From Candidatus Poribacteria bacterium (GTDB lineage Bacteria > Poribacteria > WGA-4E > WGA-3G), in the NCBI GenBank assembly GCA_963665235.2, contig CAXXLX010000002.1, positions 256,001 to 320,000 on the forward strand: a stretch of 64,000 bases of DNA, written 5' to 3'. Positions 2,063 to 19,427 of this stretch are shown here, piece by piece (the first letter of the stretch is position 1; the number at the start of each line of letters is the position of its first letter). The notes beneath the pieces were generated by a model. The model saw nothing but the letters and a program-made list of their open reading frames with translations. It did no database searches and had not been told where the DNA came from. Both the position numbers and the translations under genes were made by a program.

Positions 2063-3049
2063 CTAAAGGAGAAACGGTTTGTATGCTGGCTCTTCGCCTG
2101 TAATTACGCGTGCCAGATGACGTGCCTGAAGTTCAATACAACGTAGGTAGGTCGTTTTCTCATTTCGTGCGGTGTCTTGGAAGGTCTGTTGCATCCGCCC
2201 GTAATAACCGACGAGAAAACGATCGAGTGCCTCCTTGGTGAATCGGATCCCTTTGGTTGTCTCTTCAAAGTCCTCCGGTTGCACCCGGTTGTTGTTGACG
2301 AGCGATAGCACATAGCCATCTACGATAATCTGTCGGAACTCCTCCATCAGATCGGAGGCTAATGTGGCATGCCCGTGTTTGGGTTGATGAAAATAACCGC
2401 AGTATGGATCGAATCCGACGACGTTGCTGAAGGCATACACGTGGTTGTATAGGAGCGTGTAGCCGAGTGAGAGCATGGCGTTAATCGGATCGGGGGGTGG
2501 TCGAAACTGCCGTGTTGTAAACTTCCAATCGTTTGAGAGAAATTGTCGGAAGGCACGGTAATATGCGGCGGTGCCTGCGCCTTCATATCCGAGCAGGGAT
2601 TCCAAATTTTGCGCTCCCTCAAGATTTTGGAGCGGCTTCTGAATTCCGCTGATGGCGGATTCGATTTCTGCGTTTTGCGTTCGTTGCCGTTTGCAGAAAC
2701 GGATTGCGTTTTTCAGCTTGCCACGCACAAATCCTTTTGCGAGTTCAAGACACTGCTGCGGATCGGCTGCTACGGTGTATTGACGTTGCCGGATGAGGAC
2801 ATCTCTGGCGTAGCCGGGTTGAAGTCTCCCTTTGTATGTGCCCCGTGAAGAGAGGAACGATACGGGAATGCCTTTGTTGAGTAAGTATCCCATCGTTTGT
2901 GTTGTGAGGTGACCGTTGCCGAAGATGATGACTTCGTCTAGTTGCACAATCGGGATTTCCTGAAGCACTTCGCGATTTTTTTTGACGATGACCTGGTTAC
3001 CAGATTTGTGAAGAACAGCTCCCTGTTGTGTGATGTAAAGAATTGCCAT
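2063..3049 (-). CDS. cas1: CRISPR-associated endonuclease Cas1
   Basis: MAILYITQQGAVL start; LLGYEG, DPINAMLSLGY, GYFH and LASDLMEEFR motifs; adjacent to the leader. Confidence 0.97.
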   Translation of the reverse strand: MAILYITQQGAVLHKSGNQVIVKKNREVLQEIPIVQLDEVIIFGNGHLTTQTMGYLLNKGIPVSFLSSRGTYKGRLQPGYARDVLIRQRQYTVAADPQQCLELAKGFVRGKLKNAIRFCKRQRTQNAEIESAISGIQKPLQNLEGAQNLESLLGYEGAGTAAYYRAFRQFLSNDWKFTTRQFRPPPDPINAMLSLGYTLLYNHVYAFSNVVGFDPYCGYFHQPKHGHATLASDLMEEFRQIIVDGYVLSLVNNNRVQPEDFEETTKGIRFTKEALDRFLVGYYGRMQQTFQDTARNEKTTYLRCIELQARHLARVITGEEPAYKPFLL

Positions 3050-3082
3050 TTTATGCCTCCTATGGCGCGATTTTTGATATTA

Positions 3083-3508
3083 TACCATTTTTATTAATTA
3101 TTCTATCATTACCGGTTGTTAGAAATGAAACGGAGAACGGAAGACACAAACTATAAGTTTATGCTACTACAAAGACGCACAAACTGGAAGTTTATGCTAC
3201 TACAAAGACGCACAAACTGGAAGTTTATGCTACTACAAAGACGCACAAACTGGAAGTTTATGCTACTACAAAGACGCACAAACTATAAGTTTATGCTACT
3301 ACAAAGACGCACAAACTGGAAGTTTATGCTACTACAAAGACGCACAAACTGGAAGTTTATGCTACTACAAAGACGCACAAACTATAAGTTTATGCTACTA
3401 CAAAGACGCACAAACTGGAAGTTTATGCTACTACAAAGACGCACAAACTGGAAGTTTATGCTACTACAAAGACGCACAAACTGGAAGTTTATGCTACTAC
3501 AAAGACGC
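3083..3508 (+). mobile_element. MITE family A copy with 11 x 33-bp tandem REP-like units; right end replaced by a MITE-B copy
   Basis: Begins TACCATTTTTATTAATTATTCTATCATTACCGGTTGTTAGAAATGAAACGGAGAACGGAAGAC, as at 29500, 31467, 58061 and (reverse) 61534. Unit ACAAACT(GG/AT)AAGTTTATGCTACTACAAAGACGC from 3146 to 3508. Confidence 0.85.
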
Positions 3509-3610
3509 AAATTTAACAGGACCATCGTAGGGGCGAGGTCGCCTCGCCCGCTAGGTCTGCCTCTAACTCCCATTAGCATAAGGGTTTATCAAAGCACTGC
3601 GTCCATCCTG
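3506..3610 (-). mobile_element. MITE family B copy (reverse) containing a GTAG-GGGCGAGG/CCTCGCCC REP hairpin
   Basis: Reverse complement resembles 63658-63771 (CAGGA...GATAAACCCTTATGCTAATGGGA.TTAGAGG...AAATTTGCGT). Confidence 0.7.
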
Positions 3611-3714
3611 ATTATAGTAGAGCCTGTAATTATTTGGCACACACGGCGGGATCCGCACGGGCTGGGTGACCCAGCCCCTACGAGTGTGTCGTGTGGGATC
3701 CCGGCCGAGTGCCA

Positions 3715-5151
3715 TTAAGCCTTTGTTTTCTGTGTGTCCCGTTTTTTGAAACGGCCGCCAAGCTGCGTAGCAATATTTTTCCCACGCTGGGCGGCATGTT
3801 GCACGGGCCGCGCGACTTGTGCTGCACCCCGTTTTAAGGCGTGTTGTACCTGGTTCTGCAAGATTTTCGCTTGCGAGTCGGGGACAGGTTGGTAACAACC
3901 ATCCTTGTCGAAGACGTGTCCGAGGAATTCTACGCTGTCATCGAAACGTGCGATTTGCGTCTTTTTAGGGTTCAATCCTAACTTGAGTGTCGCCAGCCGT
4001 TTTTGTGTTTGCTGTAGTGCATGTCGTGCGCGGCGTTCATTTCTGGTTAGGATGAGCAGGTCGTCTGCGTATCGCACAAGCCGTATACCTGCCCGCGTCA
4101 TCGCCTTGTCGAAGGGGTGCAGGTAGATGTTGGCTAACAAGGGTGAAAGCGGTGAACCCTGTATAATGCCGATTTTGCGTGGGCGACTCAGACGCTCCTT
4201 GACGATACCGCCCACAGTAGGTGCGGCAAGTGTTGCTACGACAAGCGGTGCAGCGAAGAGTAGGTGTTTTGCCGTGAGCCCCATCCATATCCGTTTTGAA
4301 TTTGCAAGGAGTAGTAATACCCCGTCTCGTCCTAAGTTTATTAATGCCTCCTTATTTGCATGAGACCAGAGTCCGTTATCTTTTACACGTTCCAGTTCGT
4401 CAATTTCCCAGGAATCTTCGGGCGGTATGGGTTGCATATCGCCGTATTCATCGGCATAATAGACGTTTTCAGGTGGTGTGCTAAGTCCTGAGCCGCGTTG
4501 CAGGATTTGGCTCATGACCCGTTCGACCCCCGCGCCTAAGCAGTGGGCGGTGTTTTCAATATGGGTGCTCCATGTCGGAAGCTTGGGCGGTTGTAAGATG
4601 CCTCCCATATCCAGCCACATCTGAATGAGGCGTAAGATTGCTGGCTCTTTCAGTGATGCCCGCAGAAAACGCATGAGAATTTGTGTGTCCATTCTGTCAA
4701 AGAAGTTCTCAATGTCCGCGTGAACGACCCATTCGTATCCCTCCGCTCGGATGGCGTTTACCTGGGCAACTGCATGGGGTACGCCGCGATTGGGACGGTA
4801 TGCGAAGCTGCACTCCAGGAATTTTGCCTCGTAAATCGGGGTGATGAGGTCGCAAACGGCACGTTGAACAATCCGATCTTTTAATGTCAGCACAGCGAGT
4901 TCGCGTGGGGTGCCGTTTGACTTCTTAATGATGAACTTCCGAAGTGGAAGCGGGTAATACCGTTCTTCAGCCAGCTCACGCGAGAGTTGACGGAGATGTT
5001 TCGCAAGGTTCGCCTCAAACTGTTGAATGGTAACGCCATCGCTACCGGGCCCTCCTTTGTTGCTTCGCACTTTTCGCCACGCGGCATGTAGGGTTTCGGG
5101 TTGACAGAGTTGTGTTGTGAGTGAATTATTTGGTGATGTGTAATCAAACAT
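3715..5151 (-). CDS. CRISPR-associated stand-alone reverse transcriptase (group II intron-like RT core) with a large internal insertion
   Basis: AWRKVRSNKGGPGSDG (RT0), KKSNG-RELAV-DRIVQRA, SFAYRPNRG, VHADIENFFD, QGSPLSPLLANIYL, RYADD, VEFLG. No maturase or endonuclease domain; lies between cas2 and cas1. Confidence 0.93.
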   Translation of the reverse strand: MFDYTSPNNSLTTQLCQPETLHAAWRKVRSNKGGPGSDGVTIQQFEANLAKHLRQLSRELAEERYYPLPLRKFIIKKSNGTPRELAVLTLKDRIVQRAVCDLITPIYEAKFLECSFAYRPNRGVPHAVAQVNAIRAEGYEWVVHADIENFFDRMDTQILMRFLRASLKEPAILRLIQMWLDMGGILQPPKLPTWSTHIENTAHCLGAGVERVMSQILQRGSGLSTPPENVYYADEYGDMQPIPPEDSWEIDELERVKDNGLWSHANKEALINLGRDGVLLLLANSKRIWMGLTAKHLLFAAPLVVATLAAPTVGGIVKERLSRPRKIGIIQGSPLSPLLANIYLHPFDKAMTRAGIRLVRYADDLLILTRNERRARHALQQTQKRLATLKLGLNPKKTQIARFDDSVEFLGHVFDKDGCYQPVPDSQAKILQNQVQHALKRGAAQVARPVQHAAQRGKNIATQLGGRFKKRDTQKTKA

Positions 5152-5830: not shown

Positions 5831-7252
5831 CTACGGTGTGCTGAGCCCTGCATCAATTATCTGCAGCAATAACCGCTTACGGGTATGTTGTTCTCGGAGG
5901 TCTGCGAAATAAACACGCCACTGCTCTTCTTGACCAAGGTGCTGATAGAGTGCCCTTAATTCTATTAAATATGCCGAAACTTTCTCGTAAGCTTCACGTT
6001 TTCGGAAAAGCGCGGTCTGTTCAATAAGACTTTGATAGAGCAAAATGGCGGTATCGGGATAGTGTTGACCAAGAAGTGTGAGCAGCCGTTCGGTGAAATC
6101 TGGGATACGTTTGACAATTGGGCCCTGCAAAAGGGACGCGTATTCGGCAACGGATAGGGGGAATTCTTCAACTGCTTTCCATGCTGCATCGTCGCGCTGC
6201 TGTGTGAACAGCGCGTGTATCAACCGATACCCCTCCTTTTCACGTAGGGCAAGCTGGAGGTAATCTTCAGTTCGCTCATCGCGAAAATATAGGGCAAGTA
6301 AAAGTTGAACGTGTGCCTGTCGCTCGGGGCTTTCATCGAGACGTTGTTCAATTGTTGTGTGTAAATCTGATGGATTTTGCATTGCACAGAGCTGTTCAAG
6401 GTGGTGTGTGAGGATAGGTGTGAATACCGGTGCTGCTTCAAAACTGAGTGACAGCAGCAGGCGGCAGTGTTCAGACAAGGTCTCAGGTGTAGCCCCGGTG
6501 TTTTTGAAACCTACTGACATCGGCTCTTGCGTGTTGAGGACAATGCGCGTGAACTGCTTTGTGCATTTTTTAACAAATCGGGGCAATTCATTCCGCTGGA
6601 GCGTGTCAGGATAATGCACAATTGATTGGTGTATGAGAGCATGGAGGAGGGCGAGCGCGAATTCCGTTTCGCCTACCTGTGCAAGTGATTCGGCATGCAT
6701 GAGGAGCTCTTCAAGTTGAGCTAACACCTGTTGAAGTTGATGTTGTTCCAGAAAGCTGTCTCCAAAAATGGTGTTGAGCTGTTCTCGGTAAGCCGTAACG
6801 AGTGGAATCGGGTCAGTTTGAGGGGGTGTATCCGGAATATCTGTCCATCCCTGCACTACACGTGCCAATGCTGGCCTTCGCTTGAGCATCTCCATAATGA
6901 TGTGCAAAAGCTGTTCCTTCGGTTTTTTCGCAAGCGTAGCAAGCAGGGTGTCGACAGAACAGAGCACCTCCGGCGCGTGAATGTAGGTCAACAGCAGTGC
7001 GACGATATGCTTACAATCTCCTTCACCGCCGTAAGGACATGAACAGGACGCGGCGGCAATCCCTGTGGGTATCAATTCCACAGACACCTTATACGGTTTC
7101 GGATATGTCCCGCGGCATGTTGCTGACAACGTATAGCCGTGGAGTACCGGGTTGCCAATTGCGCCATCGTGGAAGTATTCCAGGCCGCGTGTGAAACTCC
7201 GTTCTGTGCAGCGGTGTTTTATCTGAGCGTAGGTAAGGTGAGGACTTTGCAT
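5831..7252 (-). CDS. SWIM zinc-finger domain protein with a helical C-terminal region
   Basis: SFTRGLEYF...YKVSV...CSCPYGGEGDCKHIVALLL (CxC...CxH). Likely ATG at 7252 lies 1 nt after the cas2 stop. Confidence 0.85.
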   Translation of the reverse strand: MQSPHLTYAQIKHRCTERSFTRGLEYFHDGAIGNPVLHGYTLSATCRGTYPKPYKVSVELIPTGIAAASCSCPYGGEGDCKHIVALLLTYIHAPEVLCSVDTLLATLAKKPKEQLLHIIMEMLKRRPALARVVQGWTDIPDTPPQTDPIPLVTAYREQLNTIFGDSFLEQHQLQQVLAQLEELLMHAESLAQVGETEFALALLHALIHQSIVHYPDTLQRNELPRFVKKCTKQFTRIVLNTQEPMSVGFKNTGATPETLSEHCRLLLSLSFEAAPVFTPILTHHLEQLCAMQNPSDLHTTIEQRLDESPERQAHVQLLLALYFRDERTEDYLQLALREKEGYRLIHALFTQQRDDAAWKAVEEFPLSVAEYASLLQGPIVKRIPDFTERLLTLLGQHYPDTAILLYQSLIEQTALFRKREAYEKVSAYLIELRALYQHLGQEEQWRVYFADLREQHTRKRLLLQIIDAGLSTP

Positions 7253-7253
7253 A

Positions 7254-7529
7254 TCAAACCACGATTGTCTTGGGCTCTGATGTGACATCCCCCACAGCAG
7301 GCACTTCGACCCGTCCTACACAAGCATTACAGAGTGCATAGTAGCGAACTGAATCCTTATCAGGGTCTATGATGTTCACAACGGCGCGTTTCATTTGATC
7401 AAATTGGGAATGGGTGAGATGCGCTTCAAAGACGCTGTACTGGACGCGGGTGCCGAACCCTTTGAGTGTTTTGGCGAGTTGGGTGCGCCGCTGGTCGTCC
7501 GGAATGTCGTAAGAGATTACATAGAACAC
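7254..7529 (-). CDS. cas2: CRISPR-associated endoribonuclease Cas2
   Basis: VISYDIPDDQRR...GFGTRVQYSVFE...DSVRYY. Probable GTG start at 7529. Confidence 0.96.
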   Translation of the reverse strand: MFYVISYDIPDDQRRTQLAKTLKGFGTRVQYSVFEAHLTHSQFDQMKRAVVNIIDPDKDSVRYYALCNACVGRVEVPAVGDVTSEPKTIVV

Positions 7530-7610
7530 CGAATTTATCCTCCGTAGTAGCACAAACTTCCTAGTTTATGGCATGTAGCACAAGCTTCCTAGTTTGTGAC
7601 ATAAGGAGAC

Positions 7611-8579
7611 CTAAGGAAACACCCCGACGATGTGGTACTGTCCATATCCGAATGCTGTATGATGCCCGATATGTAGATATTTGCCGAGAACGATTAGCGG
7701 AAGGAAGGGTTTTATGTCCCCCTCAAAACGAATCTTGCCTCTGAATCCACTCATCGGAACTGATGTCTCCTGCCGATAAGAATATCTATCTCGCGGTAAC
7801 CACTGCAAACCGGAGGTATGCCTGACACCGCTGGCTTCCTTGATTAGGGCGGGTGCGTCTACGTCCAAATCCTCGCCGCAGTGACATAAACTCAAGAAAC
7901 GGATACGCCGGAGCAGGTTGCGGATGAGATGTTCAAACGTCAGATTGCTTGTCCAGCGTCCGTTGACCTTTATGCTGGTGGGGGTGAGAAAATCAAGTTC
8001 AAGTTCATCTGTAATGTGAGGTGCAACTCGTCCCACGTCATCAAGTCCGAGCAGGAGTCCATCGTCTGTCAGCATCTGATCCGTTGCGGTGTAGATTGTG
8101 TGACCCGGCTCTTCATCGGACGCGGGTAGGCTTTCGACTGTTTCCAGTAAACACCGCCCGCGCTGGTCTTTAAGTCCGATTCGTTGGATGCCCATCCTGT
8201 GGAAGGTAAATACCATCCATGGGAGTACCGCTATCGCCTCTCCGATGAGGATCAGATTACACTTGAAGGTGTCGCCTGGAGCGTATCGGACTTTGCCGGT
8301 ACGGGGTGGTTCAAGTACGAACGGATGTGGTGCGTACGTCTGTCCTCGGAGGACAGGACTGTCCTGCGGCACTGGCGTTTCAAAGCATCTGGAGTAGACG
8401 CATTGGTCCGGAAAGTGACACTGGTTTTCGCACTGCTGTTCGGTGCCGATGCAGACGGTGTGCCGGAGGACGTATCCAAATCTGCCTCTGAAGATGTTGC
8501 CTTTGTAGGCTGGCATCTTCAGGGGCTCTTGGACGGTGTATGTGAAGCGGTAACGCGCGAAGCGGAAGTTTTTGAGCAT
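7611..8579 (-). CDS. cas6: crRNA-processing endoribonuclease Cas6 (Cys-cluster type)
   Basis: GNIFRGRFG, Cys cluster, F-TPT, C-terminal G-loop HIGHHTAFGYGQY. Probable start MLKNFRF at 8579. Confidence 0.92.
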   Translation of the reverse strand: MLKNFRFARYRFTYTVQEPLKMPAYKGNIFRGRFGYVLRHTVCIGTEQQCENQCHFPDQCVYSRCFETPVPQDSPVLRGQTYAPHPFVLEPPRTGKVRYAPGDTFKCNLILIGEAIAVLPWMVFTFHRMGIQRIGLKDQRGRCLLETVESLPASDEEPGHTIYTATDQMLTDDGLLLGLDDVGRVAPHITDELELDFLTPTSIKVNGRWTSNLTFEHLIRNLLRRIRFLSLCHCGEDLDVDAPALIKEASGVRHTSGLQWLPRDRYSYRQETSVPMSGFRGKIRFEGDIKPFLPLIVLGKYLHIGHHTAFGYGQYHIVGVFP

Positions 8580-8595
8580 GGGGGTTGTTGGTTCA

Positions 8596-9336
8596 TTACG
8601 CATCAGCGTTAGTCTTGGTTGCTTCAGCATCCGCATCCGAGTTAGGACATGTTGTTTCCGCGGGTTCCGACTCTGCACAAAGTAGGTCAGTAGACGGTAT
8701 TAAGGGCGTTTTGTCTGATTTGCGTACGAGTGCCACAAGGGCAGCATCAACAATACCTGCTAAATGGTATTTGGGGTCATAGTCTACTACTTGTTTGAGT
8801 TCTAGCCGTAGGGGCAAGTTCTTTTCTGCCAATTTTACATCCTTCAACGGTGGTATCCAGATTTCTGCTCCTCGGTCTTCTCGCAATTTTACCCAGCGTG
8901 TCTGTGTGCATTTAACGTCGGTACCCCACAAGGCGTGGTATTCTGTTAGAGCCTCTCTCTTTTTCCGAGACTTTTCTGGATTGTCCTGATCGTTTTCATT
9001 ACAACCGATCCAAACGTGCTTTTCGTCTTCGACATCAAATTCCAGCAGGCGTGCATAATGTTTGCCATCCCAATCTCGCCAGACGTGCCATTCGCCTTTC
9101 TCACCGAAAAGACGGAGATCGCTCACCAGTTCCCAATCCGGTTTCCATTTTGATTCTTTTTCCGATTCTGATTCTTTATATGGGGGCCAGCAGATGTCGT
9201 TTGGGGATACTACGCCAAAGCCGATAAACCCTGGTTCTTGCACCAAAACCCATGCTAAATCTTTTTCGGTAACATTGGACAGATGGCCACAAACCCATGA
9301 TTCATTGAGTTCTTCTATATGCGTTTTATTCGGCAT
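8596..9336 (-). CDS. csx19: Type III-D subunit Csx19
   Basis: LRLFGEKGEWHVW and YHALWGT motifs; follows the Cas7-Cas7 gene. Probable start MPNKTH at 9336. Confidence 0.8.
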   Translation of the reverse strand: MPNKTHIEELNESWVCGHLSNVTEKDLAWVLVQEPGFIGFGVVSPNDICWPPYKESESEKESKWKPDWELVSDLRLFGEKGEWHVWRDWDGKHYARLLEFDVEDEKHVWIGCNENDQDNPEKSRKKREALTEYHALWGTDVKCTQTRWVKLREDRGAEIWIPPLKDVKLAEKNLPLRLELKQVVDYDPKYHLAGIVDAALVALVRKSDKTPLIPSTDLLCAESEPAETTCPNSDADAEATKTNADA

Positions 9337-10840
9337 CGGAATCCTCCTTGTCATTCTTCTTAGGTCGCCGTGATCCTTTAGGACGATCGGTATAGCTCTG
9401 CGCTGCATCGACACAGCATTGGAGAAAACCGGCATCACCATTTTCAACCGTCATGCGTTTGTCTTCGTCTTTTTTCAATTTCCATTCCCTTGTATTAGAT
9501 GGATCGGGGTCATCTTTATATATCAATTTTGCTGCGATACCTCGGAGTGTGCCGCGTCCGTTGCTTGTCTCCCCACCGAGAGCGGCATGTCCATACCAGA
9601 AATCCCGCAATGTCAACAGCAGTAAACCGATCTCCGCGTCGCCCGGTTCCTCCAACGTGAGTATTAACCGAAGATTGGATGCCGATTCTTTTTCAGCGAT
9701 TTCATCGAGACTAATCGGATAAACAGGCTTTTCGTTAAATAGGGCACCATCCAAGCTGCCACCAGTAAAGCGATCGATAGCAACACGATCTTGCCACTGA
9801 TATCGCACATTTTTCACTAGCTGCTCCTCAATCCTAACTCGACTTGCACGCGCATCCGGTTCCTGGTTCTTATCACCTTTTTCATAGACGTAACCAAACA
9901 TTTTGTCAACTGATTTCTCTGACCAACCAATAGTTTTCGCGATTAAGGTAGCACGATGGCGGAATGCACCGCCAAAGGAAGTTCCAGGAACAACGGGCTC
10001 TCCATCGGACTGTAGGTGTATCATGTCTGGGTCATCTGGATTTCCAGAGGAACTACGGATTAGCAGGGAGGTACACAGCTCAAAGTTAGCTTCAATACGG
10101 AAGTATCGTCGGTAATCGGATGGCAATGAGCGTATTTCTAAAGAGCTCGGGTCTCGAGACCAAGGATCGTCTCGGAGCCATGACATGACATCCTCCGGGT
10201 TGTTCATTTGCAAATCGCGTATTTGCCAAGTGCCTACTTTACCGCAACCATAACCGCGACGGGTGCGCGCACCTAATCGGATATTCCCATCCTGAAATCC
10301 GTGCAGAAGTGCCAAAAACAGTGCTGTTAAATCATAGTTCTTGTCCCCTTCACGAATCACACATTCCAGATTCAGTTCAAACTCGGTACCACGTTCAACA
10401 ACTTCTACATCAAACTTTGCTTTGTCCGCAGCGGATCCTGATTGTTTGTCCACGCGGACACCGTCTCGAGTTGATGTCGTCGCTTGCATACAGTGAGCAT
10501 CAGCAACTGTCAGAGCACTCATCGGGTCGGACTTCTCCACGGTATCTGCTTTTTCTGACCCACCGAAAAATCTTTTGAATTCTGATGATTCTTTGGTATG
10601 TCCTCCTTGATATTGCTTCCACGGTAAACTCTGGTGAGCGAGAAAGCTCCGTGCAGCACCAGTAATGGAGGCCCCAGGGATAAAAGGTTTCCCGGCTTCA
10701 TCCCTCAAGAGACACATATCTGCTATTCCAGTTTCGTCGCCGCCAAAGTGTGCTACACTCTCTAGTTTCCATGTCCCACGCGCATATAAGCGGCGGACAA
10801 CAGCATCATCCATAGGTTTTATGGTTGTTGTATTTGCCAT
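9326..10840 (-). CDS. cas7: Cas7-Cas7 (double Csm3-like RAMP) fusion
   Basis: Two RAMP units: HFGG..D..KPFIPGASITGA..FFGG..RDGVRVD..LGARTRRGYG and EPVVPGTSFGGAFR..MFG..RVAIDRFTGG..LGGETSNGRG. Confidence 0.92.
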   Translation of the reverse strand: MANTTTIKPMDDAVVRRLYARGTWKLESVAHFGGDETGIADMCLLRDEAGKPFIPGASITGAARSFLAHQSLPWKQYQGGHTKESSEFKRFFGGSEKADTVEKSDPMSALTVADAHCMQATTSTRDGVRVDKQSGSAADKAKFDVEVVERGTEFELNLECVIREGDKNYDLTALFLALLHGFQDGNIRLGARTRRGYGCGKVGTWQIRDLQMNNPEDVMSWLRDDPWSRDPSSLEIRSLPSDYRRYFRIEANFELCTSLLIRSSSGNPDDPDMIHLQSDGEPVVPGTSFGGAFRHRATLIAKTIGWSEKSVDKMFGYVYEKGDKNQEPDARASRVRIEEQLVKNVRYQWQDRVAIDRFTGGSLDGALFNEKPVYPISLDEIAEKESASNLRLILTLEEPGDAEIGLLLLTLRDFWYGHAALGGETSNGRGTLRGIAAKLIYKDDPDPSNTREWKLKKDEDKRMTVENGDAGFLQCCVDAAQSYTDRPKGSRRPKKNDKEDSDAE

Positions 10841-10875: not shown

Positions 10876-13290
10876 CTATGTTCGTCGCTTACGGTAGAGC
10901 GAGGTTAGCAAATGATTGAGGAATACTTGGCACATTTCCTTACTGTCTCCCTTCAGTTCATCAATCAGGGTTTTTCGCGTGTTTGCATAACTTTCATCAA
11001 CGTCGTCTTCAACGAGTGCTTCTATCTGAGTCCGAATTAATGATTCAGTTAGGGTCTCAGGGGCACTCCAAGCTATCTTGAATAAATCATACAATGTTGT
11101 ACTTCTTGGAAACCACGGCATACCGGATCGAAGGGTTATTCGACAATTCGTCAAACCTTCCTTCGCTTGCCTACGTAGGTCGTTCAGAGTATCAATGGGG
11201 ACATCTTGTTGCAAAAAGAAACGTAGTCTCCCGAGGAGCGCGTTGCTTGGGATTTCTTGTATGGCACCACGGATAGTCGCTATGTTCATCGCTCCCTGCT
11301 GCATTTCTGCCAAACAGCGGGTTCGAGCGATCTCTTTAAGAAGGGCTTGAACACACGCGGGTATCTCTGATCCCCCGGGGACAGGGGGACTATCTTGATT
11401 GTTGGGATCGTCAAGCTGTGTTTCCATTGTATTTGTCAATTTAAAGCGATTGATCGCAATGCGCCCATAGCCTTCACCTTTACGCAGCCCTAAACCATCA
11501 TATTCCAATTCCACCAGACGTTTTTTGTCTATTTCTTTAAGTTCTTGCTTTAATTCAAACACAAAAACACTACCAGCAGCTATAGCGGGCCACTGCTGTC
11601 GGGGCAGACGCAAGTGGGCGTTATAACCACCAACTAATTCCGTACGGGTATAGCTGCGTAAAAGTTTCAAATCGTCCGCATTCAAAGATAGCAATTTTGC
11701 CAATTCCTGTTTGGGGAAACATGAATCTGGATGTCCATTGTCATTGACAACCAGTAACTGAGATAACGTGGTAACAATTAAGCAATTGCCAAGATTAGGA
11801 ACACTATGTCCCAGTTGTCCAATAAATCCATCCCACTCAACACACCCCTTCAATTGTTGGGGCCCCTTAGCATCGACCCATTCAAATGCTGCCTCGCCGT
11901 ACTGTGCACTGCGAGACCGCCCAAGTCTTATTAGGTTTGTCCCTTTCAACCACTTTTGCAAGTCTTTCAAGTCCGACTCTGAACCCAGGACCACTCCTTG
12001 AAATGTTTCGCCTGTCTGGATGGCTTCATATTGAAAGAAGGCTCCGCCAGCTGAAACGTCTGCCCCAAGGGCACGGCCTATGCGGCGATCTTTTGAAACC
12101 CGGGCATGATGATAATTTCGTTCTGTTCTAACCGATTGACTCTCCACGACACCTTTGTCTAGTTTAGCATAGCGACGCTCAAGACGTTTTTTAGGTCTTT
12201 TCTTTGAGTCCTCGTCCTGTGCTTCCACCAAATCTACTAGCGTTAACATTCTGCTGTCCTTGAATTGACGTATGGAATGCGGAATAGGAAGTAGACGTTG
12301 TATGGAATCATGGGCTTCAGGGTAAGCTGTCAGGAACCGTAATTTACCCTCAAGAAATACATTGCGAAACGCTTGATCATCCGGTGTGTGATTCGGCTGA
12401 TGGAGATAGTGCCAAGCAGCAGCCCCCCATACATTGCTACCCGGGATGTCTTGCCGAGTCACAACAGTATTTGAATCTCCTTCTGTCGCTGGAATAACGA
12501 CTGGTGCTGTCAAAGTCAACCGATATCGCAACAAATGTGTGGGAATGCCGCTATGTGAAAGAGAAGTATTGGATGTCTGCTTTCTTGATGTTTTGGGCGA
12601 CTGGCTCACCATGATGGATGGAAGCGAATTTTGGTTCAAAACTTTTTCTGTCAAGTCGCACTCTTGGTTACTCCCGTCACTTTCAATCAGACGACAACAG
12701 ACCTTTCCGAGTCCACGGGTACGTGCAGTGCCCATGTATTGTAAGGCAGCAGCACTGATAGCTAAGGCATTAAGCAATTCTTTATCAGGATGCAGAGTAA
12801 ACTGCACCGGTGCTCGAAATACCAACCCCGGTCGGAGAGTACGGGTAAGACGAAGTGTGTCCTCTTGTGCTACGCCGGTCTGGCGATCTATGGCGGTTTG
12901 GGCGCGCACAGTAGAAAAGTGTTGCACGACATCCTCGCGGAGAATTTTCCGGATATTCTGATGTTGCAGATATTCCAGCCAGGGTTTCAAAGACGATGCT
13001 TCTACCAATTCAGCGTTTCCTACATACAAAGCAACCTCTCTGTCACCAGGGCTTTTTCCGGACTCGCCAAAAATCTTCGATGCTGGCGTAGAAGTCTGGT
13101 AACACGCTCCCCAAGCATCCGTAACATCACGATAGGCCTCACGCCACAAGCCTTTCAGCCTTCTACCAGGGAGAATTGGTAAGCCCAAGTCGTCAGAGGC
13201 TATGTCGCGGTCAACTAAGCCAACACGTCCCTCGCCAGATGCCGATGTTAATGGTGATTGCAATGTAATTTGCAAGACATAATTCATCAT
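10876..13290 (-). CDS. Cas7-Cas5(Csx10)-Cas11 fusion
   Basis: N-terminal Cas7 (LPILPGRRLKG, TAIDRQTG, MGTARTRGLG); Cas5/Csx10 (IPGSNVWGA, RLGRSRSAQYG, GGYN..P, AGSVF, GLGLRKGEGYG); helical C-terminus (PSNALLGRLR) consistent with Cas11. Confidence 0.88.
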   Translation of the reverse strand: MMNYVLQITLQSPLTSASGEGRVGLVDRDIASDDLGLPILPGRRLKGLWREAYRDVTDAWGACYQTSTPASKIFGESGKSPGDREVALYVGNAELVEASSLKPWLEYLQHQNIRKILREDVVQHFSTVRAQTAIDRQTGVAQEDTLRLTRTLRPGLVFRAPVQFTLHPDKELLNALAISAAALQYMGTARTRGLGKVCCRLIESDGSNQECDLTEKVLNQNSLPSIMVSQSPKTSRKQTSNTSLSHSGIPTHLLRYRLTLTAPVVIPATEGDSNTVVTRQDIPGSNVWGAAAWHYLHQPNHTPDDQAFRNVFLEGKLRFLTAYPEAHDSIQRLLPIPHSIRQFKDSRMLTLVDLVEAQDEDSKKRPKKRLERRYAKLDKGVVESQSVRTERNYHHARVSKDRRIGRALGADVSAGGAFFQYEAIQTGETFQGVVLGSESDLKDLQKWLKGTNLIRLGRSRSAQYGEAAFEWVDAKGPQQLKGCVEWDGFIGQLGHSVPNLGNCLIVTTLSQLLVVNDNGHPDSCFPKQELAKLLSLNADDLKLLRSYTRTELVGGYNAHLRLPRQQWPAIAAGSVFVFELKQELKEIDKKRLVELEYDGLGLRKGEGYGRIAINRFKLTNTMETQLDDPNNQDSPPVPGGSEIPACVQALLKEIARTRCLAEMQQGAMNIATIRGAIQEIPSNALLGRLRFFLQQDVPIDTLNDLRRQAKEGLTNCRITLRSGMPWFPRSTTLYDLFKIAWSAPETLTESLIRTQIEALVEDDVDESYANTRKTLIDELKGDSKEMCQVFLNHLLTSLYRKRRT

Positions 13291-14933
13291 TCTTTATTTT
13301 CCTCTCTGTCATCTACATTACCGGTTTCTGGTTGGACTTCTATCCAGAAGTCGAGCACTTCGAGCGGATCGAAGTAGGGCGTGGTCGGGGCATCACCACC
13401 TGTCCATCCGGTGGCCCTTGCATCGCCCCCTACACCGGATGATGGCAACTCCACATTACGCCATTGTGCCCCCTTAATGAAATGTTCACTTGCCACTGGA
13501 CCTTGCGTTAGAGCGTGTAAGAGACCTTTAGCACGATTGCGGGGCCACCCCGACGATTGGAAACCCTTTAAAATTGAGATAAAATTGTTCCAATTGTCCG
13601 AACCTATTGACACCTCATAGGGGCGTTGATGCAGTACTTGTCCTTCAAGGCTGCGATACTGCACTTCTCTTAGAGCTGTAATGGATCGGGTAGCACCTTC
13701 TTGAATAATCTGAAAGTCTAACCAACTACCTTTTGAATCTCCTTCTTCACGACGGTATCGCTTGGCCAGCGCACAAAGTTCATCAGCAAAACCGTAAGCC
13801 CGGGCAAATGGGAACTTCGTTGGCACGATCGTGATGCCCGCGCACGCATCAACAGATTCTTTCTTGCCACAGACTTGAATGTTGCCAGAAGAAAACGCTT
13901 TTAGATAGAACGCGGCAAGATGGAGCCCAACACGACCATCGCAAACAAATGTCAAATCATCACCACCGTACACAATTGGACGCAGCGGGAATACCTCCGG
14001 CGGATTGTGAAGTGCCTCCAGCGGCAAAGTAGCCTTGAAGTGCAGTAATGTTGCCTCTAAGGCCCTATGAGACAGGTCTGTCGTAGAAGCCGAAAACGCG
14101 CGCAGATTATGGAGGAATTCGGCATCTTCTTGAGATTCTTTGTCCACTACTCGGTTGAGCCGCTCTCCCATTCCGTTACCATCTGCATGGACTATAGCAA
14201 TGTGGGATTCACCTTCGCTACCTCCTAATTCCTCTCCAAGTTCAATGGCGAAACGTTGTCCATCTGGCAAGTCATTCCCTGCTGAAAGAACCTTGGAAAA
14301 TTCATTTGCAATAGAGTCCTGAGCAGGCCCGGGAGCCTGTTGAGAGCCAACCTGATTTCGCTTACTCACTGCAGCTAGCGAGATCCACTGTTGGTCTTCT
14401 TTGCTAAGCATACTTGCCGGAAGTTCGGTAGTGGTACAAGAACGAACAATAGGCAAACTATAGAGAGTTGAACCAAACGGAAGTGCTTCCTCACAAGCAG
14501 ACAGATCGTCCAATGCCGTACGATACGCCTCGGCAAATGTGGCATTTACATCTCCATATCCAACGGCGATACGAAGTGCCGGAGCCTTATATAGCAGCTG
14601 GCAGCTCCACGCCGAGACTGCCCGGCGCGCAGTATCTCGGCTACTGCATAACAAGGCAGCGTTTCCACCACCGACATAGAGGAGATTGACATCTGAAGAT
14701 GCTGACAGTGCTTCCGAAAGCGCGGGAATAGACTTGGGTATGCTCTGTTGGTACTTATCCCAGCAGTCTGTGTTAACAGCAAGTCCTGTCCCCTGGATAG
14801 ATTCAATCATACCTTCTTTGAGCCAATATTTTGCCAAATAGGATGCCCCAATATTCTCCTTCAAATGGTTGCTCTGAAAGACATATTTCTGAAGACTAAC
14901 AGTACCGAAAACCAAAATGCACTGAATTGACAT
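13287..14933 (-). CDS. cas10: Cas10 lacking an HD domain, with an intact palm GGDD motif
   Basis: LQKYVFQSNHLKENIGAS, YVGGGNA, IAIVHADGNGMG, PIVYGGDDLTF, KFPFARAY. At 548 aa it has no N-terminal HD domain. Confidence 0.95.
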   Translation of the reverse strand: MSIQCILVFGTVSLQKYVFQSNHLKENIGASYLAKYWLKEGMIESIQGTGLAVNTDCWDKYQQSIPKSIPALSEALSASSDVNLLYVGGGNAALLCSSRDTARRAVSAWSCQLLYKAPALRIAVGYGDVNATFAEAYRTALDDLSACEEALPFGSTLYSLPIVRSCTTTELPASMLSKEDQQWISLAAVSKRNQVGSQQAPGPAQDSIANEFSKVLSAGNDLPDGQRFAIELGEELGGSEGESHIAIVHADGNGMGERLNRVVDKESQEDAEFLHNLRAFSASTTDLSHRALEATLLHFKATLPLEALHNPPEVFPLRPIVYGGDDLTFVCDGRVGLHLAAFYLKAFSSGNIQVCGKKESVDACAGITIVPTKFPFARAYGFADELCALAKRYRREEGDSKGSWLDFQIIQEGATRSITALREVQYRSLEGQVLHQRPYEVSIGSDNWNNFISILKGFQSSGWPRNRAKGLLHALTQGPVASEHFIKGAQWRNVELPSSGVGGDARATGWTGGDAPTTPYFDPLEVLDFWIEVQPETGNVDDREENKE

Positions 14934-14951: not shown

Positions 14952-16043
14952 TTATTTCCAATGCAGATCTCTACGGAGGTATTTATAGAAATGATCTGAT
15001 AGAGACTGCCACTTATGACGTCCCCAGATTTGCAGAGGTAGGTCCGAGCTACCTGTCTCGTCTTGCAATTCTGCTTCAATGTATGGCTGGTCCTGTTGAC
15101 GAACACTACACAATACAATTGCACGTGCTTCATCACCACCAAGTTGTCTGGATCGAAGAATGGCCTCCATACCTTTCGCCTTAACCTCGTCAGCTCCGCC
15201 AGAAACAGTGCATGAAACTACGACAATTTGGTAACCTAACACTGCCACTACGTCCAATTCAAAAGGACGAACCCTTGAAGTAGTTGCATTGGATCGCCGA
15301 ACGTATACGTTATGGAAAAGTTCATAGTTACATCTTTGTGAATTCTGCCTACAAATTTTCTCCAATGCTGCTTTCATAGCTGCATATGCACCGTACTCAA
15401 GCAGGCGAAAATCGTGGATGAATCCATTAAGTGCTGCATTGCCGGCATCTATTTGTTCATCTGTGAGCTGACTGGGCTCCGGACAATCTTCTGTTACCTC
15501 ACGACCAACTTCCCGCTTCCAGTACGTGTGTCGGAAGGGGCCAAGCTCGAATCCATTCAGATCAGCAATGTTCGTAAGACTGGGATTAACATCTATACGG
15601 GTGTCCGTTACAAGCTTGTTGCTGTCCCAATCTACGATAGTCGGACCGTTGGGCGCGCGCGCATCTAAGTAGGAAGTTTTCATATCAATATTACTCGGCA
15701 ACGCAAAATCTTCAATAGCAGCAACAGTTTCAACACCCATAACCTTAGTTCCCCCCGTGTAATGAACGTGGATTTTCTCATCTGTCGGTAAACTTGGAAT
15801 AAGTCTCGTATTGATTTTATCGCGAACCTTTCCTGGATCACCTGCTGATGTTTCGTAAGTTTGGACATCAGGGATGTGTCCACAGTGTTTTTGTAGTCGC
15901 TCCTTTTCGTCACTTGTACCTGCGGTATGGACAAGTCTGGTTGTAACAGAGGCATCCAGTTTATCCTTCAAATGATACCAAGCGACCCAAACAGGGAGCG
16001 GGTTGGTCCCAACTGTCATTATCAGTTGTGTTGCCATAACCAT
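14952..16043 (-). CDS. CARF-domain PD-(D/E)xK nuclease, Can2/Card1-like cyclic-oligoadenylate effector
   Basis: CARF motifs MTVGTNPLP and HYTGGTKVM; C-terminal FELDVVAVLGYQIVVVSCT...EAILRSRQLGGDEAR. Confidence 0.85.
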   Translation of the reverse strand: MVMATQLIMTVGTNPLPVWVAWYHLKDKLDASVTTRLVHTAGTSDEKERLQKHCGHIPDVQTYETSAGDPGKVRDKINTRLIPSLPTDEKIHVHYTGGTKVMGVETVAAIEDFALPSNIDMKTSYLDARAPNGPTIVDWDSNKLVTDTRIDVNPSLTNIADLNGFELGPFRHTYWKREVGREVTEDCPEPSQLTDEQIDAGNAALNGFIHDFRLLEYGAYAAMKAALEKICRQNSQRCNYELFHNVYVRRSNATTSRVRPFELDVVAVLGYQIVVVSCTVSGGADEVKAKGMEAILRSRQLGGDEARAIVLCSVRQQDQPYIEAELQDETGSSDLPLQIWGRHKWQSLSDHFYKYLRRDLHWK

Positions 16044-16081
16044 AATCTCCATCGTATGCATGAATAGCGAACATTTAGGCA

Positions 16082-18499
16082 CTAAAAGTCATAGGGCTCA
16101 TAGGCTAATCCGCTTTCATCAACCCTCGGAAGTGCCTCTCGCCAATTACGTTCGTTCTCTGTAAACCATTGGAAGTTCTCACCTTCTGGAGTCGGTTCAC
16201 GCTTCAGGCGTGGATAATGAATCGGCGAGTCATCCACGGGGCCTTCTAGGATTTGTAAGAAATCCGAGATGAAATAGAGATCGCCAAAACTTGGAGAGGT
16301 ATTATACGCTGCCTCCATACTTGCCTGAAACGCCTGAATACATTGGTTTCGCTGATTGTCATCCAACGTAGCGGGCGGATCGGCATCAAAGGTAGCGTAG
16401 TACTTTTTCCAATCTTCGCTAGTACCGAGTGGCAAAACCCCGTCGTCAACCTCCAGTCTCACACTCCCGAAACCCAGCGGCTTGCCGTATCCGAGTTTGA
16501 AGTAATGTTTTTCAGGAAGCGTTAGCAGCCAAAGTAGTGCACCAATCTCTTCAGGTTGTAGATTTTGAACGTACAGAGATGCCTTAAACTCGGTGCCGGG
16601 CTTAATCCAACTTGTAATCGAACGGTTCTGTGGATCTGTTTGTGGTTTGCCATCTTTATCATCAGGCCGGCGGTATTCTTGATATCGACCTTTACGCTTA
16701 ATCTTCGTTCTGTCCTCAACGGATGGCTGCCAGTAGCACAGTGTTTGTTTGCTCTCCTCCAACTCGGCTTCTAGCCCTGCATGGTGCCAATATTGCTTAC
16801 GGCCCCGTAACCTCTTACTCTGACTTGCGTCATAACCCGCGTCCTGCTTCCTGACACCGTCTTGTGGATCACCTTGATCGTCAGCAACATAGAAACGGCC
16901 CTGCGCCGGTTTTGGTTGTCCTAAAATTGTCAGTGGCAGTTTGCCATTAAATTTCTTAACAATTTCTGGTCGTGCACCATCCTCACAGACAACCCGGAGA
17001 CGGCTCTTGTAACCTGCATCATCTCCTTGTTCCTGAGGCACCCACCCAAACAGACGATCTGCTGGAGACAGCTTATTTCTCTTACTCGCCGGCCGGAGCG
17101 ATGGATCAAGCAGATCTTTCGGGCTGTCGACGTACAATTCGCGGGATATCAGGACAGGAAAAAAATCTTCAATTTCTGTAATCTTTCCGCGCTTGAACTT
17201 ACAGCGGGCATATACCATATCACCCGCTTTTAGTTCAAGCGCGTCATGTACATCTCTACCCCAGCGGTCCTTGTGTTTACCGTCCTCATACAGATGTGGA
17301 GACCAAGCAGTTTGACCAGGGTCTCTGCCAAGTTTTTTCCAAGGTTCATCCTGTGCCCCCTTTCGATTGAAAATATCGTTTTCGGAGTGTGCATCCCGAT
17401 AACTTTGGATACGCATGCGCCAGTCCTCTTTGAGCTCGTCGGTCACAGGCAAAGTGGTTTTCATGGGATTGAAGAAAATACGTTCATCATGTTTGTTGTC
17501 CATGTTTTCATTAGTAATCAAAATATGTCCTTCAACAACGTTCCCTCCAGGCAACGGGTTATTAGGATATCTAGATTTTGGCCAAACTTTTGTCACCTTC
17601 AAATATTGGTAACTCCGGTGCCGGCGGCGATCAATTTCTACCCAAACTTCATCGCGAGTGCGCGGCCCATATCCTCCGATACACACTGAATTCTCCTGCG
17701 AATTTCTATGGTAACATGTTAGCATTGCAGCGTACATAGGACCATTGGGCCCTGTAGGTGTCGGCGTACTAGTTCCTGTATATAAACGCGCTACTAAATT
17801 CCCACCGCCAGCATCTTCAATAACCGCCGGAATGAGATTCAAAGCTTCTTGCGGCCTCATACGATAGGCTAATCGATCTCCGTTACTAAAACACGCGTAG
17901 CGCGAATTCGTCGCTATTTCATAGGCACTACGCAACATACCGCGCAAAGACGATTCCGGTAGAAAGTCAAGCACGTCATAAATTTGATGTTCCTTTGGCT
18001 CTCGTTCCGTGCCATCATTCTTAAGTAACACTAAGGGCGTAACCGTGGTTATCTTGATTGGGATATGTCCTGTCCACAAACCATCTTTGAGAGACGCATG
18101 ATCAAGAGGAGGATTATGTTCCAACGGATCGAAATCACCAGCAAATCCATTTGACGGCCGCGGAGGCGTGGGGACAAAGGTATATGGATTATGGAAATAG
18201 TCGTGTTCATCGTCAGTTGATAGCGTCCCCTCTGAAGGTGGTTGATGTCCAGTAGGTTGATGTTCTTTAATCCTCAATGGTCGTCCCATCATCTCTTGAT
18301 TATCCAATGCTTCTATCGCCCGTTCGCCTTCCTCTCGGTTTTCCATTACAACCGTCCCGGACCCATTAGATTTACCTTGATGGGGTCCACTTTGGTGAAG
18401 GTTAATTGTGACAGTAGTTACCGTTCCATACTGCTCAAAGTGTCTTTTCAAGTCAGTATCGGTAGCACGGTATGGCAAATTATCGACATAGATTTTCAT
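16082..18499 (-). CDS. Type III-D Cas7-insertion RAMP with an N-terminal RRM domain
   Basis: aa 1-80 IYVDNL...FEQYGTV...AIEALDNQEMMGRPLRI (RRM); then FHNPYTFVP, LPESSLRGMLRSAYE, ADRLFGWV, LRGRKQYWH, KLGYGKPLGFGSV. Confidence 0.9.
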   Translation of the reverse strand: MKIYVDNLPYRATDTDLKRHFEQYGTVTTVTINLHQSGPHQGKSNGSGTVVMENREEGERAIEALDNQEMMGRPLRIKEHQPTGHQPPSEGTLSTDDEHDYFHNPYTFVPTPPRPSNGFAGDFDPLEHNPPLDHASLKDGLWTGHIPIKITTVTPLVLLKNDGTEREPKEHQIYDVLDFLPESSLRGMLRSAYEIATNSRYACFSNGDRLAYRMRPQEALNLIPAVIEDAGGGNLVARLYTGTSTPTPTGPNGPMYAAMLTCYHRNSQENSVCIGGYGPRTRDEVWVEIDRRRHRSYQYLKVTKVWPKSRYPNNPLPGGNVVEGHILITNENMDNKHDERIFFNPMKTTLPVTDELKEDWRMRIQSYRDAHSENDIFNRKGAQDEPWKKLGRDPGQTAWSPHLYEDGKHKDRWGRDVHDALELKAGDMVYARCKFKRGKITEIEDFFPVLISRELYVDSPKDLLDPSLRPASKRNKLSPADRLFGWVPQEQGDDAGYKSRLRVVCEDGARPEIVKKFNGKLPLTILGQPKPAQGRFYVADDQGDPQDGVRKQDAGYDASQSKRLRGRKQYWHHAGLEAELEESKQTLCYWQPSVEDRTKIKRKGRYQEYRRPDDKDGKPQTDPQNRSITSWIKPGTEFKASLYVQNLQPEEIGALLWLLTLPEKHYFKLGYGKPLGFGSVRLEVDDGVLPLGTSEDWKKYYATFDADPPATLDDNQRNQCIQAFQASMEAAYNTSPSFGDLYFISDFLQILEGPVDDSPIHYPRLKREPTPEGENFQWFTENERNWREALPRVDESGLAYEPYDF

Positions 18500-18557
18500 C
18501 TCGTTCCTCTATTGAATGTTGAACTTGAAGACTTCCTTCTTTAAGATATTAGATTTT

Positions 18558-19427
18558 CTAAACATGCCTAACTGCGGCACACAAACTATCGTTCAAATTT
18601 GTATGGTCGATGCTGGTAGTCACAAATCCCCAGGTCAATCTCGATAAGGACGCTCGGATGGACCTATCCTGTATGTTGCCTGTTACGCCGCCGCGTCGCA
18701 ACATATGAATTATAAAACGCCTTACAATGCCAAACGCGAAGTGTCCTGGAAGTAAATCAATGAAACGATGTTTCTTTAAAAACCCGTTAACCAAGACTTC
18801 CGCAGTAGCAATGCCTCCAACGCTAACGTGCACAGCCGCGGTACAGGACCAGTGATCAATTCTGTCAGCGTGGAAATCTATTTTTCCCTTCGTTGCAAAA
18901 AATCTGTCTGGCTCCCTGAGAAAACTCCGAAGATGTGGTGCTTCGTTGTGCCGTGCTATATCTAATACGAGTAGGTCCTTAAAGTTAGCTTCTACATTTT
19001 TGAGGAAGAGCCAGAATTCATTTGCTAGCGAAGGGAAATGGGGTCCGGGAACCCCATTCATACGGTCAAGACAAAACTTCTCTATCGGTTTTGCTTCAAA
19101 AAGATAGTTTTCAACAGAATGCCGATGAAGTAAAACAACTTGTGGGCCTAGACTCGGGGGAAACGGCAAAATGTCATAATCCCCATCAAGAATAACAACG
19201 TAACGGCGTTTTTTTACTTTGAGCGCATTTACTAGGGCCATGCATTTTGGTTTTCCACCCGCTGATTTTATTACACAATTAAACCGGTTAAGGAATGGAT
19301 CCCTTGTACAGATTTCGTCGTAGAAAGTCCAATCAGTTTTCCCCTCAACATAGATAACTACATCCTTTTTAGGATGAAAGTGAGGGGTTGCTATTAACCC
19401 AGGGACGGTTCGTGAAAACGTACTCAT
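18558..19427 (-). CDS. DUF4435 TOPRIM-like nuclease, PARIS AriB-like
   Basis: IYVEGKTD..FY, GGK, ILDGDYD and HSVENYL motifs; ATGA overlap with the upstream ATPase. Confidence 0.8.
   Translation of the reverse strand: MSTFSRTVPGLIATPHFHPKKDVVIYVEGKTDWTFYDEICTRDPFLNRFNCVIKSAGGKPKCMALVNALKVKKRRYVVILDGDYDILPFPPSLGPQVVLLHRHSVENYLFEAKPIEKFCLDRMNGVPGPHFPSLANEFWLFLKNVEANFKDLLVLDIARHNEAPHLRSFLREPDRFFATKGKIDFHADRIDHWSCTAAVHVSVGGIATAEVLVNGFLKKHRFIDLLPGHFAFGIVRRFIIHMLRRGGVTGNIQDRSIRASLSRLTWGFVTTSIDHTNLNDSLCAAVRHV

Follow-up and report, generated by a model that had tools for sequence, protein, structure and literature searches.

Type III CRISPR effectors are thought to find their targets through the CRISPR RNA (crRNA) alone. 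The closest described relative of the system that we analyse here is the type III-Dv effector of Synechocystis sp. PCC 6803, whose Cas7-insertion subunit, according to the accessible part of the published description (PMC11026444), pulls out the crRNA's 3' end, exposing a 6-nt seed, and carries an N-terminal domain of its own, of about 112 residues, that is flexibly connected and unresolved in the map. Here we examine the corresponding gene in a stretch of 64,000 nucleotides from a Candidatus Poribacteria bacterium (positions 256,001 to 320,000 of the forward strand of contig CAXXLX010000002.1, assembly GCA_963665235.2), which we call the window. This gene (16082..18499, minus strand) encodes a protein of 805 residues (P0001) in which an RNA-recognition motif (RRM) forms the N-terminal part, or head, of a Cas7-insertion subunit. 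The fusion had been pointed out in an earlier, sequence-only reading of the window, and our analysis confirmed that it is real: the Pfam RRM_1 and TIGR03986 profiles both match within one uninterrupted open reading frame (ORF), the former being joined in frame to the N-terminus of the latter.

Profile matches and the alignment to a solved chain place the window protein in the III-Dv Cas7-insertion family; it shares membership of TIGR03986 with the Synechocystis subunit (8s9t_E; PMC11026444), to which it is roughly 35-40% identical by eye. The two systems share the partner set Cas10, Cas7-Cas5, Cas7-2x, Csx19 and Cas6, whereas the head of the Synechocystis type has no sequence relationship with the RRM or with the cold-shock domain (CSD) heads reported below, there being no alignment before chain residue 112. 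That a backbone or cap subunit of a type III complex can bear an RNA-binding head has a solved precedent in the type III-B 'CSD domain-containing protein Cmr6' (PDB 9arw chain H and related entries), a RAMP subunit with a CSD fused to its N-terminus, on which our literature search turned up no paper; the CSD head of one of our homologues (P0012) matches 9arw chain H with E = 3.3e-4, but this Cmr6 (376 aa) is of a different subunit family and subtype from Cas7-insertion. The type III-E Cas7-11 (gRAMP) and the III-D2 Cas7x3 share the C-terminal Cas7-insertion module (gRAMP matches; 9wxh_D, 7zol_B and others) and are multi-Cas7 single chains, unlike the window subunit. In the accessible portions of two further papers, the term RRM denotes only the core folds of Cas7, Cas5 and the palm, with no mention of an accessory head of RRM or CSD type (PMC13294483), and TIGR03986 appears merely as a neighbour gene (PMC3936711). 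Our search of the literature, with supplements and subscription journals outside its scope, found no account of RRM or CSD heads on Cas7-insertion, of their interchange, or of a head type lacking RNP1.

The window gene divides into three parts. The RRM head (residues 1-80; 18260..18499, minus strand) is followed by a linker (residues 81-101; 18197..18259), comprising the HQPTGHQPPSEGTLSTDDEHDY region, and by the Cas7 core with its insertion domain (residues 102-805; 16085..18196), which begins with FHNPYTFVP. TIGR03986, the NCBIfam profile of the Cas7-insertion RAMP, matches residues 105-751 over positions 1-566 of its 568 (303.9 bits against a cut-off of 161.35), and the Pfam RAMP family begins at residue 149. 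Residues 100-796 align to residues 112-787 of 8s9t_E (E = 1e-117); the alignment runs unbroken through residues of about 215-452, so that the insertion domain is present inside the Cas7 core, and the NCBIfam gRAMP profile matches residues 611-702. The motifs that are nearly invariant in the core alignment of homologues are likewise present. The reading frame opens with an ATG at 18499, with a Shine-Dalgarno-like GAGG (18506..18509, minus strand) at 6-nt spacing as ribosome-binding site, and because an in-frame TAG (18509-18511) lies four codons 5' of this ATG no start further upstream is possible. Scanning for promoters and terminators near the start gave no signal, with one promoter-like site (within the linker) against a mean of 2.6 in shuffled sequence.

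Canonical RRMs stack bases on two aromatic residues of RNP1. The head of the window protein has the RRM fold and is not a canonical RNA-stacking RRM. Pfam RRM_1 (PF00076) matches residues 3-76 over its full length (positions 1-70 of its 70; 54.1 bits against a cut-off of 20.7, E = 1.5e-14), and the small NCBIfam profile NF058537 (Rbp_regulator) matches residues 2-82 below threshold, with 61.8 bits where 100 are required. An AlphaFold2 model of residues 1-100, built with 20 aligned heads, shows the order β-α-β-β-α-β (strands at 2-8, 27-33, 46-52 and 76-79, helices at 14-22 and 55-65), with a predicted local confidence score (pLDDT) of about 90 for the domain apart from the β2-β3 loop. Foldseek searches with this model returned only RRMs as top matches, led by the bacterial 7qzp (E = 6e-8) and 7jly (E = 1e-7). 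From residue 84 the tail is disordered (pLDDT < 50), in agreement with the flexible linker that had been read between the head and the FHNPYTFVP start. The motifs named in that reading are all seen in the translation, namely RNP2 (I3-Y4-V5-D6-N7-L8, the hexamer IYVDNL; 18476..18493), FEQYGTV, AIEALD and MMGRPLRI, and the aromatic residue expected of an RRM at position 2 of RNP2 is retained as Tyr4. RNP1 (N45-G46-S47-G48-T49-V50-V51-M52; 18344..18367) has, by contrast with the RRM expectation, neither the aromatic residues at positions 3 and 5 nor the basic residue at position 1. In canonical fused heads and in the stand-alone Rbp of the host genome this octamer reads KGFGFVEM or KGYGFVEM, so both RNP1 aromatics are indeed lost from NGSGTVVM: Ser47 and Thr49 replace Phe/Tyr and Phe, and Asn45 replaces Lys. 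Compared with the stand-alone bacterial Rbp-type RRMs (7jly, 7qzp and the host Rbp), the head has the same fold, length, M-x-I-Y-V-x-N-L start and AIEALD...GRPL end, and differs in the Asn, Ser and Thr at RNP1 positions 1, 3 and 5, in a longer β2-β3 loop (LHQSGPHQGKS, residues 34-44; 18368..18400; pLDDT about 67) and in being covalently joined to Cas7.

Homologues of the window protein were sought among 5.8 billion clustered proteins, with 8000 candidates scored and 505 matches, of which the best 120 clusters were examined; head types were called from a precomputed Pfam column together with N-termini read by eye. PF00076 (RRM) was found in 61 of these clusters, PF00313 (CSD) in 51 and neither in eight. 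The latter comprise one CSD missed by Pfam and seen by eye (P0115), bringing the CSD heads to about 52, two ORFs cut inside the head (P0035, P0058), two cut further in, with the N-terminus lost (P0077, P0089), and three headless proteins (P0026, P0082, P0095), a condition also found at locus L029. Thirteen named headed loci, from metagenome-assembled genomes (MAGs) of Candidatus Poribacteria, Latescibacterota and Binatia with 49-69% identity, carry seven CSD heads, four canonical RRM heads, one variant-like RRM head and one head cut by the contig end. The rarity of an RRM fusion, which the sequence-only reading had implied, is therefore not borne out, while its account of the fusion, the lost aromatics, the linker and the gene order (see below) stood. 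The fusion is common in the sequence databases, a circumstance that the earlier reading had itself named as a ground for refutation; a CSD frequently occupies the same position, and the window copy belongs to a group of fair size that is so far undescribed, rather than being a unique oddity. The N-terminus of this clade appears to be a socket for interchangeable heads (canonical RRM, CSD and variant RRM) that would bind RNA. Five loci (L022, L023, L024, L025 and L055:1501-3216) hold headed 'Cas7-insertion' genes in which the insertion domain is missing (query residues of about 215-452 absent); their products, of about 570-650 aa, still bear a head of RRM or CSD type, and the loci keep the gene order of the clade.

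The system is patchily distributed in the window's own phylum. Of 41 close relatives, two scored above the TIGR03986 cut-off, and among the matches listed eight genomes of the phylum had an RRM in an open frame of at least 570 aa; of its 176 genomes, 158 contained an Rbp-like gene standing alone or some other match to the RRM. This distribution would fit a horizontal spread of the system.

The unusual RNP1 of the window head is shared by ten of the 61 RRM clusters (P0001-P0005, P0007, P0025, P0060, P0073 and P0104). Position 1 is Asn or Asp in these heads, the aromatic positions are occupied by Ser/Thr and by Thr/Ile/Met, giving the pattern G(S/T)G(T/I/M)VV, and the β2-β3 loop is three residues longer than in canonical heads (…NLHQSG-x-H-x-GKS…), being rich in His, Gln and Lys in the window protein. 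The ten clusters have 58-96% head identity and core identities of 62-82%, and in six of them (P0002, P0003, P0004, P0007, P0025 and P0060) the head is 85-96% identical to that of the window, again with cores at 62-82%. Median net charge is -1 in variant heads against -5 in canonical ones, and the median number of His residues is 3 against 0. A related variant head is found on the insertion-less core of L055, which comes from another family within the same taxonomic order, and the Cas7-insertion head of L024 is an intermediate form, NGTGFVRM, in which one aromatic is kept. The alignments thus indicate that the variant RNP1 marks a conserved head type, not a one-off decay, and because heads are 85-96% identical in six of the ten clusters while cores are only 62-82% identical, the comparison argues for purifying selection on the variant head. 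Locus L024, which comes from a Candidatus Poribacteria MAG, contains a further RRM, at the N-terminus of its CARF and PD-(D/E)xK nuclease (L024:11793-13301; residues 25-95, E = 5.2e-7); the RNP1 of this domain is degenerate as well, so that two proteins of one type III locus bear non-canonical RRM heads.

Outside the fusions the variant head was sought in three ways. No stand-alone copy was found among shorter proteins with a word-limited query that gave 43 candidates; that search yielded two cut RRM-RAMP fragments, P0275 (280 aa, 98% identity) and P0276 (274 aa, 82%), followed by canonical Rbps at no more than 45%. These two fragments consist of the variant head and the first part of the RAMP core only, and may be frameshifted, split or contig-cut copies. 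Residues 1-95 compared with protein representatives gave 9740 matches at E<=0.001, the top 150 being mostly long proteins with 3-12 stretches, and nothing could be learnt from them on the distribution of the variant. The 80-residue head compared with metagenome contigs matched a single locus (L053, 38% identity).

Head type changes repeatedly on the phylogeny of the cores. On a FastTree phylogeny of 118 cores with heads and linkers removed (P0077 and P0089, in which the motif used for cutting is missing, were omitted), 15 changes between RRM and CSD are needed, 14 of which are forced by starred branches, against a mean of about 39 with shuffled labels, and the variant RRM appears in six separate places. 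Head and core identities also disagree: P0060 is 91% identical to the window protein in its head and 62% in its core, and P0006 has the most similar core of all (82%), yet a canonical head (56%). Because of this disagreement, the heads seem to behave as recombining cassettes. They are not confined to the rearranged clade either, since CSD heads also occur in two distant Chloroflexota loci with the canonical gene order (L035 and L039).

A plausible source of the RRM heads is found in the host genome itself. It has two RRM_1 matches in all, one being the fused head and the other a stand-alone Rbp (L001:1495-1770, RNP1 KGYGFVEM). Over 80 residues the canonical fused heads are 49-95% identical to this Rbp (median 81%, n=50; best P0083, 95%), the ten variant heads 54-64% (median 58%), and the window head 55% in the head alignment or 60% over 78 residues in the genome search. 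The linkers of canonical fusions, 22-44 aa long and rich in Arg, Ser, Pro and Gln, resemble the tail of the stand-alone Rbp. On these identities, the simplest reading would be that a host housekeeping Rbp gene was captured and that one head lineage then diverged. The genome's only Pfam CSD match (G000:C1:3118196-3118384, L066) sits in an open frame of 392 aa, which is not the size of a small cold-shock protein (Csp).

What such heads may do is suggested by the company they keep. Cold-shock proteins and small Rbps melt local RNA structure, and RRM and CSD, two unrelated folds that bind single-stranded RNA (ssRNA), alternate here at the same position with their canonical motifs intact. We therefore propose that the head of Cas7-insertion is a tethered, putative ssRNA capture or chaperone head placed beside the 3' seed of the crRNA, and that the variant would still handle RNA in a non-canonical way; on the evidence of sequence we consider the chances of this proposal to be evenly balanced. 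The tethered head would contact RNA independently of the guide and could catch transcripts, keep hold of the protospacer flank or open up structured stretches, the RNA being thereby fed to the exposed crRNA 3' seed that the insertion domain of the same subunit holds. The variant might contact RNA through Tyr4 of RNP2, the long loop and a helix 1 that is more basic, with changed affinity or preference. Several points weigh against this proposal. The window head has lost both aromatic platforms of RNP1, which by the textbook criterion would leave RNA binding weakened or re-routed. Variant linkers are acidic and His-rich (Glu, Asp, His, Pro and Thr; 17-28 aa), whereas canonical ones are Arg-rich, suggesting a different behaviour. 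The tree on which the head changes were counted was made with FastTree only, gave long-branch warnings and covers the best 120 clusters only. The accessible part of the Synechocystis paper (PMC11026444) adds that truncation of the insertion region of the type III-E effector left activity unaffected, so that accessory parts here are not always needed, and the placement of the head relative to the seed depends on that paper's homologue, the corresponding domain of which was invisible.

Other explanations of the window head need to be weighed against this proposal, and one of them would deny that there is a fusion at all, either because the gene is an artefact of misassembly or a missed frameshift or because translation starts after the RRM. 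The window does come from an assembly, and Met70 and Met71 are possible internal starts. Contigs of the Logan collection cover the junction between RRM and linker in four runs of two studies, three of which runs may be the source sample, with not a single letter inserted or deleted, and one contig (X2 record 15, 18177-18355, 1 mismatch) spans it; as a check of the junction this holds in the lack of indels and the bridging contig, and it is evidence from contigs of four runs rather than from raw reads. These contigs are fragmented, and some of them run into unlike sequence at 18155-18196 and at 18282-18302, one contig joint (18190>18272) omitting 81 nt of the linker. Breaks in the linker match the expectation for coexisting strains with differing combinations of head and linker and so suggest them, although contigs cannot prove it. 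Some of the runs that hold small shares of the window are labelled sponge metagenome, a label that we do not take as evidence of habitat. The uninterrupted frame, the GAGG site and upstream in-frame stop, together with an architecture that recurs across 61 independent clusters as well as named MAGs, make an artefact hardly credible. That the head is real and merely the functionless remnant of a decaying canonical RRM is somewhat easier to entertain, since canonical RNP1 residues have been lost and the headless members (P0026, P0082, P0095 and L029) indicate that the core can work without a head. We nevertheless find it very improbable, as the same substitutions and the same three-residue insertion in the loop are kept in ten clusters and in L055, head identity in six clusters (85-96%) exceeds that of the cores (62-82%), no break interrupts the frame and the model of the fold is a confident one.

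More deserving of attention is the view that the variant head has become a protein-protein module, which would link the effector with the CARF nuclease or some other RRM protein, or would dimerise. Both RNP1 aromatics and the RNP1 lysine have been replaced, the variant was seen only in fused form with the query used, and in L024 the variant-like head (NGTGFVRM) of Cas7-insertion stands beside a CARF nuclease with an RRM of degenerate RNP1. Yet an RRM on the CARF nuclease is found at that one locus only, the nuclease of the window having no such head, and the variant sits in the socket that elsewhere holds canonical RRM and CSD heads with their nucleic-acid motifs kept, which suggests a shared role. 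RRMs of the protein-binding UHM (U2AF homology motif) type combine degenerate RNPs with an acidic helix 1 and, following helix 2, an Arg-x-Phe. In the window head RNP1 is degenerate and RNP2 intact, no Arg-x-Phe is visible in the GRPLRI that follows helix 2, and the first helix is more basic than that of canonical heads. A role in protein binding thus strikes us as possible and rather doubtful. We give still less weight to the idea that the heads are decoys or sensors, copies of the host chaperones Rbp and Csp that would bait phage factors or evade anti-CRISPRs directed at the head, their swapping being the mark of an arms race. It would account for canonical heads up to 95% identical (P0083; median 81%) to this genome's Rbp, for at least 14 head changes on the core tree with discordant head and core identities, and for strain variants that differ at the linker and seem to coexist in the same metagenome runs. 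No such phage factor is known, however, and none was found in this analysis; recent gene capture with no decoy role would lead just as well to a high identity to Rbp, and recombination among co-resident loci is possible without diversifying selection; we regard decoys or sensors as distinctly unlikely.

If heads that handle RNA beside the seed are indeed what we see, an exchangeable RNA-binding domain near the seed would be an accessory device for target access, and residues 1-112 of the Synechocystis Cas7-insertion subunit, so far 'uncharacterized', would gain a candidate for what they are and do. Canonical heads nearly identical to Rbp, and the repeated swaps between RRM and CSD, illustrate how housekeeping RNA chaperone domains can be recruited by defence systems. 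In RNA-targeting tools based on III-D or III-E scaffolds such heads could improve access to structured RNAs. The interest lies mainly in a feature of the whole family, of which the window copy represents the least canonical head type well.

A further result concerns the cyanobacterial head. A Leptolyngbya homologue (L027) shares the Synechocystis N-terminal domain, because its alignment with the Synechocystis chain begins at residue 40 of both. Pfam had no match in the N-terminal domain of L027. An AlphaFold2 model of this head (L027:9695-10063; 4 sequences) has the order β-β-β-α-β-β, with pLDDT about 80 over residues 1-88 and a mean of 69; Foldseek found nothing for it in the PDB at E<=0.001, and VIA-align against 48,161 chains placed CSDs of Unr (Z 6.4-5.8), the OB (oligonucleotide-binding) fold of EF-P (6.1) and the CSD of RNase R (5.7) on top, scores of 5.7-6.4 lying within a range that the tool itself calls common. 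We take it as a lead from modelling that the N-terminal domain of cyanobacterial Cas7-insertion (8s9t_E 1-112) may be a CSD/OB-like barrel. Extending the proposal of RNA-handling heads to the whole family, one may speculate that III-Dv effectors possess, at the N-terminus of Cas7-insertion, a hot-swappable socket for guide-independent RNA-handling heads, captured from host chaperones and exchanged by recombination, to which the cyanobacterial barrel would belong beside the canonical RRM, the RRM without RNP1 and the CSD, and which would add a second layer of specificity to type III immunity by setting the RNA populations or structures open to survey; the window head would then be specialised for an RNA feature or for a protein partner such as the RRM-CARF nuclease of L024. 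In this general form we think the idea improbable, and offer it as a conjecture.

The remaining genes of the window operon, all on the minus strand, make up the III-Dv set. After the RRM-Cas7-insertion gene come a CARF and PD-(D/E)xK nuclease effector of 376 aa (14952..16082; PADLOC Csx1 9.5e-51, CARF4--CARF_PDDEXK 2.8e-45), a Cas10 of 548 aa (13287..14933; PADLOC Cas10d 1.4e-107, Pfam Cas10 palm2) in which GGDD is present (VYGGDDLTF) and in which library scans detected no HD domain, a Cas7-Cas5 (Csx10) fusion of 804 aa (10876..13290; PADLOC Cas5_IIId 3.3e-104, NCBIfam Csx10), a double Cas7 or Cas7-2x of 504 aa (9326..10840; PADLOC Cas7_IIId 1.3e-114, Pfam RAMPs in two stretches), Csx19 (8596..9447; NCBIfam TIGR03984, 63.2 bits, cut-off 35) and Cas6 (7611..8678; PADLOC Cas6 2e-90, Pfam CRISPR_Cas6). 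Cas10, Cas7-Cas5, Cas7-2x, Csx19 and Cas7-insertion being all recognised by PADLOC, NCBIfam or Pfam, the III-Dv gene set is complete, and by these profile matches the locus is a type III-Dv-like CRISPR effector system.

Its gene order departs from the one described. In the Synechocystis III-Dv operon cas7-insertion is the last gene, as stated in the part of PMC11026444 consulted, while in the window it is the first and the CARF nuclease lies inside the operon; the position first among the cas genes had been noted before and is the same in all 13 named loci (L013-L025). Among 25 more distant usable loci, which belong to Streptomyces, Leptolyngbya, Chloroflexota and others with 23-40% identity, Cas10 is upstream of Cas7-insertion in 17, two have only Cas7 fusions upstream, four have Cas7 fusions downstream, and in two no neighbours were detected.

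Downstream of Cas6 the operon is followed by a SWIM zinc-finger protein, a reverse transcriptase and Cas1, and then by the CRISPR array. The SWIM protein (5831..7288, minus strand; 485 aa; PADLOC PDC-S62 2.2e-14) has homologues in the same position in L013, L021 and L022, and may be part of the CRISPR system. The adaptation module (2063..5151, minus strand) consists of a stand-alone reverse transcriptase resembling those of group II introns (3715-5151) and Cas1 (2063-3049), both found by Pfam, NCBIfam and PADLOC; the two genes adjoin and are not fused, and pairs of reverse transcriptase and Cas1 flank the loci of many distant relatives. The array (334..1268; Tandem Repeats Finder) has a 37-nt repeat that recurs every 72-75 nt or so. 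On the other side, immediately upstream of the cas genes (18558-20737, minus strand), an AAA_15/AriA-like ATPase gene (437 aa) overlaps that of an AriB-like DUF4435/OLD-TOPRIM protein (289 aa). Judged by these domains, the two genes are a PARIS-like defence pair, and since the pair lies beside the cas operon the region would therefore be a defence island.

Tandem repeats of 28-33 nt with the core ACTGGAAGTTTATGCTAC are interspersed through the window on both strands, in arrays of up to 11 copies (3145-3509, 7547-7602, 29572-29699, 58125-58481 and 61339-61470). These arrays are intergenic and overlap a listed ORF (3116-3718), and a comparable pattern of repeat-derived ORFs adjoins the stand-alone Rbp gene in L001.

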